The notes under the pieces were generated by a model. It was not told where the DNA came from. It did not search any database and saw only the letters and a program-made list of their open reading frames with translations. A stretch of 64,000 nt of DNA, taken from NCBI RefSeq assembly GCF_017348835.2, contig NZ_CP071375.1; one strand, written 5' to 3'. Position numbers and translations under genes: made by a program. Shown one piece after another: positions 2,568-36,018 of this stretch. The stretch comes from Escherichia coli. GTDB taxonomy: Bacteria; Pseudomonadota; Gammaproteobacteria; Enterobacterales; Enterobacteriaceae. Position 1 is the first letter of the stretch. Every line of letters starts with the position of its first letter.

Positions 2568-3862
2568 TATCGCTCCTGTTTATGCCCTAACTTCCGTAGC
2601 ATTTCGCGCGTTACCAGCACGATGCCTTCTTCTGAACGATAGAAACGACGTGCATCTTCCTCTGCGTTTTCACCAATCACCATGCCTTCCGGAATAACAC
2701 AAGCACGATCGATGACGCAGCGGCGCAGACGGCACGAGCGACCTACCCATACTTCCGGTAACAATACGGCGGAATCAATGTTGCAGAATGAATTCACGCG
2801 AACGCGCGAGAACAGAACGGACTGCACCACCACCGAACCGGAGATCACACAACCGCCGGAAACCAGTGAGTTAAGGGTCATCCCGTGGCTACCGGAGCGA
2901 TCCTGCACGAATTTCGCTGGCGGTAATGATTCATTGTAGGTGCGAATTGGCCAATTGCGATCGTACATATCCAGTTCCGGCACCACAGAGGCCAGATCGA
3001 GGTTCGCTTTCCAGTAAGCTTCCAGCGTACCCACATCGCGCCAGTACGGCTCGGCATCCGGGTCGGATTGTACGCAAGAGAGCGGGAACGGGTGCGCATA
3101 GGCCAGACCGGCTTCGGTGATCTTGGGAATCAAATCTTTGCCAAAGTCGTGGCTGGAGTTCTCATCGCGATCGTCTTCTTCCAGCAGTTCATACAGATAG
3201 TCGGCGTCAAAGACGTAGATACCCATACTCGCCAGAGATTTGCTCGGATCGTTCGGCATTGACGGCGGGTTAGCAGGTTTTTCAACGAATTCGATAATTT
3301 TATCGTTCTCATCAACCGCCATAACGCCAAATGCGGAGGCTTCTTCAATCGGTACTGGCATACAAGCAACAGTGCAACGTGCGCCTTTTTCGACGTGATC
3401 GATAAGCATACGCGAGTAGTCTTGCTTGTAGATATGGTCGCCCGCCAGGATCACCACGTATTCCGCTTTATAACGGCGGATAATGTCGAGGTTTTGGGTG
3501 ACCGCATCTGCGGTGCCGCGATACCAGTTTTCCCCTTTCATTCTCTGCTGTGCTGGCAGCAGATCGACAAACTCGTTCATTTCTTCATTGAAGAATGACC
3601 AGCCGCGCTGAATGTGCTGCACCAGAGTGTGGGACTGGTACTGGGTGATCACGCCCATACGACGGATCCCGGAGTTGATGCAGTTAGACAGCGCAAAGTC
3701 AATAATGCGGAACTTACCGCCGAAGTGTACGGCCGGTTTTGCTCGCTTATTGGTTAAATCCTTCAGGCGGGTACCACGTCCTCCCGCCAGTATCAGGGCA
3801 ACAGATTTCAATGGCAGCTGGCGCGCCAACATTAAGTGATCGTTCTTCTCTAAACTAACCAT
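2567..3862 (-). CDS. glgC: Glucose-1-phosphate adenylyltransferase GlgC
   Basis: Track ORF 2567..3898; start moved to ATG at 3862 ([17 protein letters not shown]...) matching the conserved GlgC N-terminus; 1-nt overlap with glgA. Confidence 0.9.
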
Positions 3863-18765: not shown

Positions 18766-18886
18766 GATTTCGTCCTTTTTAAGGTGGTTATTTACACCTT
18801 AGCGCAAAGCGGACGTGGTTCCTACTGGAGTGCGCATAACGAACACAAGCACTCCCGTGGATAAATTGAGAACGAAAGATCAAAAA

Positions 18887-18976
18887 AAAAGCCAGCACCC
18901 GGCTGGCTAAGTAATACTGGAAGCAATGTGAGCAATGTCGTGCTTTCAGGTTCTCCGCGAGGGTCTTCCTGATCGC
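18887..18976 (-). ncRNA. ryhB: RyhB small RNA (Fur-repressed, iron-sparing regulator)
   Basis: Minus-strand sequence GCGATCAGGAAGACCCTCGCGGAGAACCTGAAAGCACGACATTGCTCACATTGCTTCCAGTATTACTTAGCCAGCCGGGTGCTGGC + U-tract matches RyhB; located between yhhX and yhhY as expected. Confidence 0.9.
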
Positions 18977-31834: not shown

Positions 31835-32944
31835 TCACTTGGCTGCCGTGGATGAACCGTCGGCGTGCCACTGGAAGACACCAAAATCAAATCCCTTAAG
31901 ATCGCCTTTTTCATCCCAGTTCAGCGGCCCAATCACGGTGTTTGCACCGTTAGCTTTTAAATCTTTCACCAGCGCCAGCGGCTCATCGCTGCCGGTACGC
32001 TCAAGGGCAGTTGCCAGAGATTGCACCGCCGCGTAGGTGATCCAGACATAAGGCCCGGACGGATCTTTCTTGTCTGCTTTCAGCGCATCAACGATGCCCT
32101 GGTTTGCCGGATCCTGGTCATAGCGTTTTGGCATAGTGACCAACATGCCTTCGGCGGCATCACCGGCAATGTTCGACAACGACGCATTACCCACACCTTC
32201 CGGCCCCATAAACTGGGTTTTCAGGCCAACGGAACGGGCCTGGCGCAGCATCTGCCCCATTTCCGGGTAGTAACCGCCGTAGTAAACGAAGTCGATGTTT
32301 TCTTTTTTCAGGCGGGCGATCAGCGCGGAGAAATCTTTCTCCCCGGCGGTAATACCGTCGAAGAAGACGACGTTGGCGTTAGCCGCTTTCAGCCCGTCCT
32401 GCACCGAACGCGCCAGCCCTTCGCCATACTGTTGTTTGTCGTGAATGATGGCGATGCGCTGAGGCTTCACCGTCTCAAGAATGTATTTTGCCGCCGTTGG
32501 CCCCTGGGAAGAGTCCAGCCCGGCAGTACGCATAATGTGTTGATAACCGCGTTGGGTCAGCTCCGGGTTGGTCGCTCCCGGCGAGATCATCAGAATACCT
32601 TCGTCTTCATAGATATCTGACGCAGGCTGGGTAGAAGAAGAACACAGATGACCAATAACGTATTTAATGCCGTCATTAACGATTTTGTTGGCGACCGCAA
32701 CGGCTTGTTTCGGGTCGCAGGCGTCGTCATATTCCACGCCAACCAGCTTATCGCCTTTAATTCCCCCTTTGGCATTAATGTCTTTAATCGCCTGACGCGC
32801 GCCGTTAAATTCCATATCGCCCCACTGGGCAATCGGGCCGGACATCGCGCCGACAACGGCAACTTTAATATCGTCGGCTAAAGCGGTGTGTGAAATTGCC
32901 AGTGCAATCATCCCTGCGATGATAGTTTTCGCATTCCGTTTCAT
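31835..32944 (-). CDS. livK: Leucine-specific periplasmic binding protein LivK
   Basis: Track ORF to 32998; conserved start [23 protein letters not shown] (signal peptide) at 32944. Confidence 0.9.
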
Positions 32945-33367
32945 AGTCAAAAATCCCCATTCGTGATGTTGTGTTGCTTTGTTTTTATGTGTTAACAAAT
33001 CAGACTGTTCTTTTTTTATACTGCACTGTTTTTGCCTGTCTGATTAAGGGTTTAGCGCAGTATTTTGTGATAATAGCGATTAAAGTCCCTATTTTTCAGT
33101 CGATTAAGAACAGATAATATTCTGAATTTATTGATAGATAAACAGAAAAAAGTGCCTTTGTCAGCATAAAATAACGGCACAAAGGGCGGAATAATTCACT
33201 ACCATTCAGGGGATTATGCTGGGTATTTTTCATTCTCTAATGTTTTAACTTTGTAATTATTGCTGTTAAAAAATTAATCACCTGCCAAAAGAAATAAAAA
33301 AGAGAAAGCCTCCGATTAAATTATTTCGCTACACTGGTTCCACTTTTGTGATTTACACGGGTTACCC

Positions 33368-33751
33368 ATGAAGCTGACCATCATTCGATTAGAAAAATTT
33401 AGCGACCAGGACCGGATTGACCTGCAAAAGATCTGGCCGGAGTATTCCCCTTCCTCTTTACAGGTTGACGATAACCACCGCATCTACGCCGCACGTTTCA
33501 ACGAGCGCCTGCTTGCTGCTGTACGCGTAACCTTGAGCGGCACCGGGGGGGCACTGGATTCTCTGCGCGTGCGGGAAGTCACCCGACGTCGCGGCGTGGG
33601 GCAATATCTGCTGGAAGAGGTGTTAAGTGATAATGCCAGCGTTTCATCCTGGTGGATGGCGGATGCAGGCGTAGAAGATCGCGGTGTGATGACGGCGTTT
33701 ATGCAGGCACTGGGATTTACGGCACAGCAGGGCGGCTGGGAGAAGCGTTAA
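33368..33751 (+). CDS. panM: PanD maturation factor PanM/PanZ (GNAT-like)
   Basis: 127 aa MKLTIIRLEKFSDQDRIDLQKIWPEY... Confidence 0.88.
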   Translation: MKLTIIRLEKFSDQDRIDLQKIWPEYSPSSLQVDDNHRIYAARFNERLLAAVRVTLSGTGGALDSLRVREVTRRRGVGQYLLEEVLSDNASVSSWWMADAGVEDRGVMTAFMQALGFTAQQGGWEKR

Positions 33752-34275
33752 TCGCTCTGTGTAAAAAGCAGTTCAATGGATTTGGTTGGGAAAAATAACG
33801 CATTTTCGTTTTCCCCGACTAAAGGGATAAAGCCCAGCGATTTATAAAACGTATGGGCTTTTTCATTCAGCGCCTCGACAAAAAGACCGTGAATACCTAC
33901 CGCTAAAGAGGCTGACCAGACGACTTTCATGGCATGAGCAACCAGTGTTGCTCCCCATCCCTGCCCCTGTAATGAACGATCAATTGCCAGACGCCCAAGA
34001 GTGACGCTGGGAATATTTTTGTAGGGAATTTTTTTCTGTTTCGATTTCGAGGGCAATGCGGCTCGTTCAAAACAACTGCCGGATAATGTGTAATATCCCA
34101 GCACCTGACGTTCTGGAGTGTTGCGACAAAGGATATACGCTCGCAGAATTTTGTTGCGATGTTGACGAACGAGATGTGTCGTCAGAAAGAGATTTAACGC
34201 TTCCTCGCCGCAGTCGAATCGCTGTAGATCATAATCTGCATCATCGGTCAGAATCTCTATCGTCAGATCATCCAT
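33748..34275 (-). CDS. ataT: GNAT-family acetyltransferase toxin (AtaT/ItaT/TacT-like tRNA-acetylating toxin)
   Basis: 175 aa MDDLTIEILTDDADYDLQRFDCGEEALNLFL...; lies directly downstream of a DUF1778 antitoxin gene; 4-bp convergent overlap with panM. Confidence 0.7.
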   Translation of the reverse strand: MDDLTIEILTDDADYDLQRFDCGEEALNLFLTTHLVRQHRNKILRAYILCRNTPERQVLGYYTLSGSCFERAALPSKSKQKKIPYKNIPSVTLGRLAIDRSLQGQGWGATLVAHAMKVVWSASLAVGIHGLFVEALNEKAHTFYKSLGFIPLVGENENALFFPTKSIELLFTQSD

Positions 34276-34281
34276 AAATTA

Positions 34282-34548
34282 TTACATTCCCTGAAGACGT
34301 TTTGCCGCACGTTTTAGCTTTTCACCTGGTGACGGTGGATTACTCAGCGCATCCATCACCCGCATCCAGGATTCCTCATTGAGGATCACCCGCCGATGTT
34401 GTTCAATCACTTCCGCAGCCCGCTGCGAAGCGCTGTTCAACATAAATTGGCTGACGGACTGATTAGATATCGCTGCCGCTTCCTCAATCATACTTTTGTC
34501 ATCGTCAGTTAAACGCAGATCGATACGCTGCTTTTTAACAGCAGACAT
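34282..34548 (-). CDS. ataR: DUF1778 (RHH) antitoxin of GNAT toxin (AtaR-like)
   Basis: 88 aa MSAVKKQRIDLRLTDDDKSMIEEAAAISNQSVSQFMLNSA...; ribbon-helix-helix N-terminus; AGGAG SD. Confidence 0.7.
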   Translation of the reverse strand: MSAVKKQRIDLRLTDDDKSMIEEAAAISNQSVSQFMLNSASQRAAEVIEQHRRVILNEESWMRVMDALSNPPSPGEKLKRAAKRLQGM

Positions 34549-34563
34549 GTGAACTCTCCTGCT

Positions 34564-34594
34564 CCGTATAATATGTACGGCATATCACCGTACA
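34564..34594 (-). promoter_or_regulatory. Putative ataRT promoter/operator: interlocking inverted repeats CCGTA..TACGG..CCGTAC
   Basis: ccgtataatatgtacgg and gtacggcatatcaccgtac overlapping a TATAAT-like -10 immediately upstream of the antitoxin start. Confidence 0.45.
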
Positions 34595-34645
34595 ATAAGC
34601 ATATCCTGGATTGTTTAATCTTTCTACAACCATTTCGACAAACAC

Positions 34646-34678
34646 AAAAAAACCCGATGGACGTTAAGCGCACCGGGC
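34646..34678 (-). terminator. Intrinsic terminator of livJ
   Basis: Minus-strand RNA hairpin CCCGGUG...CAUCGGG followed by U7, 20 nt after the livJ stop. Confidence 0.7.
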
Positions 34679-34697
34679 ATTTTCATTTATCTAACAA

Positions 34698-35801
34698 TTA
34701 CTTCGCATCGGTCGCCGTGCCGTTGGCGTGCCAGTCAAATACGCCGAACTCAAAGCCTTTCAGATCGCCTTTCTCATCCCAGGTCAGCGGTCCCATTACG
34801 GTATCCACGGAGTTCGCTTTCAGGTATTTGGCGATTTCAGCCGGATCGTCAGACTGATTCAGGCCCGCCTGCAAAGATTGCAGCGCGGCGTAGGTGGTCC
34901 AGACGAATGCGCCGCTTGGGTCCTGTTTTTTCGCTTTGATCGCATCAACAATGGGTTTGTTCGCCGGAACCTGATCGTAGTTCTTCGGCTTGGTCACCAG
35001 CAGCCCTTCCGCTGATTCGCCCGCAATGTTAGACAGCGAAACGTTAGCCACACCTTCCGGCCCCATAAACTGAGTTTTCAGCCCTGCCGCGCGTGCCTGA
35101 CGCAGGATTTGCCCCATTTCCGGGTGATAACCGCCGTAGTAAACGAAGTCGATATTCTCTTTTTTCAGACGCGCCACCAGCGTTGAGAAATCTTTTTCCC
35201 CGGCGGTGATACCATCAAAGAACACCACGTTAGCATTGCCTTTCTTCAGGCCGTCCTGCACCGCTCGCGCCAGACCTTCGCCGTATTGCTGTTTGTCGTG
35301 AACGATAGCAATACGCTGCGGTTTCACTTTCTCAAGAATATATTTCGCCGCCGTCGGCCCCTGGTCGGAGTCCAGGCCGGTGGTGCGCAGGATCAGCTGA
35401 TAGCCACGGGCGGTCAGCTCCGGCGCGGTTGCCGCTGGGGTGATCATTAAAATGCCTTCGTCTTCGTAGATGTCAGACGCAGGCTGCGTTGATGAAGAAC
35501 AGAGGTGACCAATCACGTATTTAATGCCGTCGTTAACGACTTTGTTCGCCACCGCAACCGCCTGTTTCGGGTCACAGGCATCGTCATATTTTACGATTTG
35601 CAGTTTGTTGCCTTTAATGCCGCCTTTAGCGTTGATATCCGCAACCGCCTGCTCTGCGCCGGTAAACTCCTGGTCACCGTACTGCGCAACCGGACCGGAC
35701 ATTGCGCCCACGACCGCGACTTTAATATCTTCTGCCAGAGCCATATTGCTGAATGCCAGCGCGATACATCCTGCCAGTAACGCTTTACCCTTTATGTTCA
35801 T
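34698..35801 (-). CDS. livJ: Leu/Ile/Val periplasmic binding protein LivJ
   Basis: Track ORF to 35858; conserved start [23 protein letters not shown] at 35801. Confidence 0.9.
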
Positions 35802-36018
35802 CCTGAGAATCCCCATTCTTCTGGTTATTACGTGTGTTGTGATGTTGTTGTTCAGCACTTTATTTCGTTTTATGCATGACTACCCGTGCTTTAGCAGCAT
35901 ACTCTGCTAAAACATACCCGATTTTTATGATATTGGAATAGCTATTTTGACAGTTTATTAACAATCTGCGTGGGGATTGGCGTTTTGCCGGAGGGGAAAT
36001 TGATTATTGTAGAGGCCC

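Follow-up and report, generated by a model that had tools for sequence, protein, structure and literature searches.

The interval between panM and livJ of this Escherichia coli chromosome almost certainly bears ataR–ataT, a type II toxin–antitoxin operon that codes for a ribbon-helix-helix (RHH) antitoxin and a GNAT superfamily toxin. We analyzed it within a 64-kb stretch of DNA, hereafter the window. The system is not new: its structures have been solved by crystallography, its substrates are defined, a model of its regulation has been published and RefSeq gives it by name. The locus carries little weight as a discovery and is a real but ordinary system at its usual chromosomal site. It had been recognized correctly from the raw sequence in the original prediction, which proposed an AtaRT-type pair corresponding to the AtaR/AtaT of enterohaemorrhagic E. 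coli (EHEC).

Table 1. Coordinates in the window of the genes and other features of the ataRT locus
Feature	Position	Strand	Basis and remarks
ataR, 88-aa ORF	34282..34548	−	ORF list; predicted RHH (TacA1/DUF1778) antitoxin and autorepressor
ataT, 175-aa ORF	33748..34275	−	ORF list; predicted GNAT toxin, aminoacyl-tRNA N-alpha-acetyltransferase
panM (= panZ), 127-aa ORF	33368..33751	+	Pfam PanZ PF12568, E=3e-54; convergent neighbor of ataT
livJ	34698-35858	−	3′ end at 34698
livK	31835-32998	as livJ	
livJ terminator-like hairpin with a run of seven T	~34645-34678	−	directly 3′ of livJ; precedes the ataR promoter region
Shine-Dalgarno AGGAGAG	34554..34560	−	5 nt upstream of the ataR ATG; read from the sequence, putative function
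Perfect inverted repeat TGTACGG-N7-CCGTACA	34574..34594		candidate AtaR/AtaRT operator
Weak sigma-70-like promoter candidate TTGTAC-16 nt-TATTAT	34568..34595	−	overlaps the palindrome; picked by eye, putative
Segment with no K-12 counterpart	33755..34696		942 bp against a ~183 bp REP-containing spacer in MG1655

Gene layout and protein identity

The two genes of the operon are co-directional, with the antitoxin gene upstream, and 6 bp separate the stop of ataR from the start of ataT. At its other end ataT converges on panM in a stop-over-stop configuration in which the two genes have 4 bp in common: the TAA stop of panM occupies 33749-33751, and the stop of ataT, which reads TTA on the plus strand, occupies 33748-33750 of the minus strand. 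The placement of the pair between the livJ terminator and the 3′ end of panM, convergent overlap included, agrees with what had been claimed at the outset, as do the lengths, order and family assignments of the two proteins.

Folding of a 76-nt stretch containing the livJ hairpin gave a minimum free energy of −24.1 kcal/mol (z=−3.9), a stability reached by 0 of 200 shuffled sequences; this terminator-like element is kept in other ataRT alleles. A promoter and terminator consensus scan of 33600-34800 reported nothing, the livJ hairpin included. We also considered a hairpin within ataT (33826-33863, plus strand) as a terminator for panM, and rejected it as not significant (z=−1.75, with 13 of 200 shuffles equally stable). 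Farther out, livJ and livK are paralogues with ~75% DNA identity over ~1 kb that bracket the panM–ataRT segment in the same orientation; they could recombine with each other across the ataRT cassette. Elsewhere in the window, RyhB (18883-18947, minus strand, 83.1 bits) is the sole Rfam family above the gathering threshold.

A phmmer comparison against all PDB chains, which bears out the expected similarity to characterized GNAT toxins at a level that chance could not produce, identified both proteins. The window AtaT is identical to chain 6gts_A at 174 of 175 positions over its full length (E=8.7e-116), with C65S as the sole difference, and the window AtaR is identical to 6ajm_C at 87 of 88 positions (E=5.3e-51), with T62M as the sole difference. 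AtaT additionally matches 6AJM, 6AJN, 6GTP/Q/R and 7CHD, all of them AtaT of E. coli O157:H7, which together with 6GTS make up the structures of the O157:H7 AtaR–AtaT pair. Pfam places the 88-aa protein in the TacA1/DUF1778 family (E=8.6e-26) and detects GNAT domains in the 175-aa protein.

Both ORFs are full length, and the residues with a published role are in place. In AtaT, G108 has been implicated in acetyl-CoA binding and Y144 in catalysis, and a further set of residues, namely F30, H34, R37, R40, N41, R71, S76, K77, S78, K79, K81, K82, P84, Y85, R95 and K165, in tRNA contact or toxicity (PMC7595197). The window AtaT retains all 18 residues named in that study, that is, G108, Y144 and the 16 tRNA-contact or toxicity residues. 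Likewise, the window AtaR has R8, D10 and R12, the positions for which DNA reading has been demonstrated in the homologue KacA (PMC6698736).

Upstream region and proposed mode of action

On the minus strand, the sequence upstream of ataR reads ...GCTTATTGTACGGTGATATGCCGTACATATTATACGGAGCAGGAGAGTTCACATG. In addition to the ribosome-binding site, it features the perfect 7+7 inverted repeat listed in Table 1, which stands 26-46 bp upstream of the ataR start and is accompanied by a third, imperfect arm, CCGTATA, at 34564-34570. Three intact ataRT alleles, those of the window, of O157:H7 and of a 96%-identity variant, have the same palindrome arms, and the spacer between the arms varies. For both AtaRT and KacAT, binding of the hexamer to a palindrome within its own promoter has been published (PMC6698736, PMC8138530). 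We propose that 34574-34594 is probably the AtaR operator because of its position, its symmetry and the conservation of its arms. The TTGTAC/TATTAT promoter candidate fits only 8 of 12 consensus positions; the scan of 33600-34800 yielded no sigma-70 promoter of consensus quality, and did not report this candidate either.

The mode of action that follows is transferred from what has been published for the O157:H7 proteins, which are nearly identical. AtaT would be a GNAT enzyme active as a homodimer, which is expected to recognize the acceptor stem of charged tRNAs and acetylate them; the modified tRNAs would be unusable in translation and protein synthesis would stop. AtaR, made from the upstream gene, would bind AtaT through its C-terminal part and block the productive dimerization of the toxin. 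An AtaT–AtaR4–AtaT heterohexamer could then sit, via its two RHH dimers, on a palindromic operator within the promoter of ataRT, repressing the operon, and surplus toxin would weaken this binding. For the O157:H7 system, it has been reported that AtaR hinders the formation of the AtaT dimer, that the heterohexamer is the repressor of the operon and that it binds the operator less tightly when toxin is in surplus (PMC8138530). For the particular pair encoded in the window, AtaT S65 with AtaR M62, toxicity, neutralization, substrate range and repression are thus predicted by analogy.

The aminoacyl-tRNA that is acetylated has already been addressed in the literature for the O157:H7 AtaT (PMC7595197), and its primary target is disputed. 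As summarized in PMC7470980, the first report on AtaT gave Met-tRNAfMet as the sole target, as against the broader set of later work, in which Gly-, Trp-, Tyr- and Phe-tRNAs were also efficiently acetylated; there, a tRNA was recognized by its consecutive acceptor-stem G-C pairs and by the kind of aminoacyl group that it carried (PMC7595197). The biological role of AtaRT is similarly unsettled in the literature, with persistence, stress response, genome stabilization and virulence all under consideration (PMC8138530).

Forms of the panM–livJ site and their evolutionary setting

To survey the distribution of the cassette, positions 33748-34697 were compared by megablast with 5426 complete E. 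coli genomes. The ataRT segment is present in 1624 of them (~30%), in one copy each and always on the chromosome. For each of the 29 near-full-length matches listed, the RefSeq (PGAP) annotation of the aligned stretch shows ataT, ataR and panM; the 30th match listed is the rare form with a shortened ataT that is described below. The best match, at 100% identity, is from the pig isolate PE164, where the context is livK–panM–ataT–ataR–livJ–rpoH. The O157:H7 genomes have ataT and ataR annotated at the same site between panM and livJ, with DNA 98.8% identical over 946 bp. Within the window, tblastn recovered no second GNAT/RHH pair of the ataRT2 kind or other.

The presumption that K-12 lacks the pair at this position also holds. 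In MG1655, panZ and livJ are separated by a spacer of only 187 bp (3369-3555 of the locus extracted from that genome), which contains REP-type palindromic units instead of the ataRT pair; the window and MG1655 run collinear up to 33754 and again from 34697. Approximately 3751 of the 5426 genomes (~69%) carry this K-12-type spacer at nearly its full length, a count rendered approximate by the REP parts of the spacer, which recur at a median of 40 places in each genome. The panM–livJ site exists in two main forms in E. coli, the ataRT form in ~30% and the REP-type form in ~69% of genomes, which together account for ~99%.

A rare third form is seen in 10 of the 5426 genomes, in which ataT is cut to its C-terminal 60 codons. 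Its representative L003 (3001-3763, from E. coli UID2309220033) codes for a 94-aa AtaR-like antitoxin with 66% identity, and looks like an orphan antitoxin remaining after the decay of its toxin. This antitoxin has H8, A10 and S12 where AtaR has R8, D10 and R12, and the livJ-proximal arm of its palindrome is altered, a joint pattern that would be expected if the RHH strand reads the arms. L003 further displays ~126 additional bases between the livJ stop and the livJ terminator (3640-3763). These carry a GC-rich repeat (…CCCCTCGCCCCTTCGGGGAGAGGGTTAGGGTGAGGGG…) that matches many places in ~2500 genomes and therefore belongs to a dispersed repeat family.

The alleles of the window were also traced by exact-sequence look-up. 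AtaT with S65 was recorded in at least 1000 contigs, against 787 for the crystallized C65 form, and AtaR with M62 in at least 1000 contigs, against 167 for the crystallized T62 form. Strain H105, with its 96%-identity allele, has S65 in AtaT as well, and AtaR position 62 is variable among functional homologues, being T or M, and S in KacA. The window alleles are accordingly common natural forms distinct from the crystallized O157:H7 form, and we call them common rather than defective because their exact-sequence contig counts are high.

Beyond E. coli as labelled, the AtaT cluster includes members that their sources assign to E. albertii and E. ruysiae, and the contigs carrying them display the same livJ–ataR–ataT–panM–livK order with the same 4-bp overlap at panM. 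Therefore, the cassette at this site would either be older than E. coli or have been exchanged between species via its conserved flanks. Two of these contigs (L006 and L007), which bear the AtaT P0008 labelled E. albertii, have mannose/sorbose-type PTS genes on the upstream side of livJ, the position that rpoH occupies in E. coli. L007 additionally has an IS1 transposase gene next to panM, in the place of livK.

The neighboring panM is itself diverged: it is 92.45% identical to K-12 panZ, as against 99.46% for livJ, 99.10% for livK and 98.71% for rpoH. PanM ends in R in each of the four ataRT-site loci examined, and in C in K-12. These differences suggest that the diverged panM allele has been co-inherited with the ataRT cassette as a linked haplotype. 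One could go further and propose that ataRT and this panM form an old co-inherited haplotype in which the stop-over-stop overlap couples toxin expression to PanM, a proposition that we consider very unlikely. It would find a footing in the overlap being common to the E. coli alleles examined and to the loci with E. albertii- and E. ruysiae-labelled AtaT, in there being no convincing terminator between ataT and panM, and in the Pfam family of PanM (PanZ) being itself a GNAT acetyltransferase domain. If true, an acetyl-CoA-dependent toxin would be linked in its expression to PanM, by transcriptional interference or by antisense RNA.

Alternative readings and comparison with known systems

The identification of the pair as ataR–ataT has to be weighed against other functional interpretations of the same genes. 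In one study of EHEC, a ΔataT strain was reported to be less adhesive and less virulent, and K206 of EspB, a component of the type III secretion translocon, to be acetylated by AtaT (PMC7957018); from this one could argue that AtaT mainly, or additionally, promotes virulence as a lysine acetyltransferase of proteins and is not a growth-arresting tRNA toxin. This is unlikely, if still deserving of some consideration: the acetylation of EspB comes from a single report, whereas tRNA as the substrate of AtaT is backed by crystal structures with tRNA and by in vivo and in vitro data on acetyl-aminoacyl-tRNA (PMC7595197). Moreover, the 30% of E. coli genomes that carry the cassette are of many sources, and the contigs with AtaT labelled E. 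albertii and E. ruysiae carry it too. That the proteins are no toxin–antitoxin system at all, but an ordinary housekeeping GNAT acetyltransferase next to a small transcription factor, has a probability close to nil. The NCBIfam HMMs gave both proteins only weak, sub-threshold generic matches, for example to RimI, and no family assignment (the names ataT and ataR come from the RefSeq annotation itself and not from such matches), and PADLOC has no anti-phage defense model that matches either AtaT or AtaR; yet the near-identity to proteins with published toxicity, neutralization and structures (PMC7595197) effectively refutes such an interpretation.

Accepting the pair as AtaR–AtaT, it might be supposed that the copy in the window is inactive or attenuated through AtaT C65S, AtaR T62M or both, given that these two positions differ from the crystallized sequences and that AtaR residue 62 lies within the C-terminal region of the toxin-bound fragment (6gtq_C, residues 44-88). 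Against this stand the intactness of both ORFs and of every residue with a published functional role, the greater frequency of S65 and M62 in public data, the recurrence of S65 in the H105 allele and the variability of position 62 among functional homologues. On the strength of allele frequency and residue conservation we reject this possibility, to which we would assign a very small probability.

As an intact ataR–ataT operon, the locus is closest to the AtaR–AtaT of E. coli O157:H7, which bears the Sakai locus tags ECs4308–ECs4307 (PMC7470980). The two are alike in gene order, the 6-bp spacing, the panM–livJ site, the 4-bp overlap with panM and the arms of the palindrome, and are unlike in having S65 in place of C65 in AtaT, M62 in place of T62 in AtaR, and two differing bases in the spacer between the palindrome arms. 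The next relatives after AtaRT are KacA–KacT of Klebsiella pneumoniae HS11286 (5XUN, 5ZGN), with KacT matching the window toxin at E=2e-74 and KacA the window antitoxin at E=4e-38. The published identities of KacT to AtaT and of KacA to AtaR are ~67% and ~73%, respectively, and the KacAT heterohexamer binds a palindromic operator with conditional cooperativity (PMC6698736). This system shares with that of the window its GNAT–RHH family and its protein lengths, and differs in its host and its locus. Several remoter PDB chains, of GNAT toxins and DUF1778 proteins, match the window proteins at E=1e-11 to 1e-21. Among the known systems of this kind, TacA–TacT of Salmonella, ItaR–ItaT of E. coli HS and AtaR2–AtaT2 of O157:H7 likewise combine aminoacyl-tRNA-acetylating GNAT toxins with DUF1778/RHH antitoxins (PMC7470980, PMC7367177). 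These systems are far remoter from AtaRT: AtaT2 is 29% identical to AtaT (PMC7470980), and the tRNA specificity in these other systems is for Ile in ItaT and for Gly in AtaT2.
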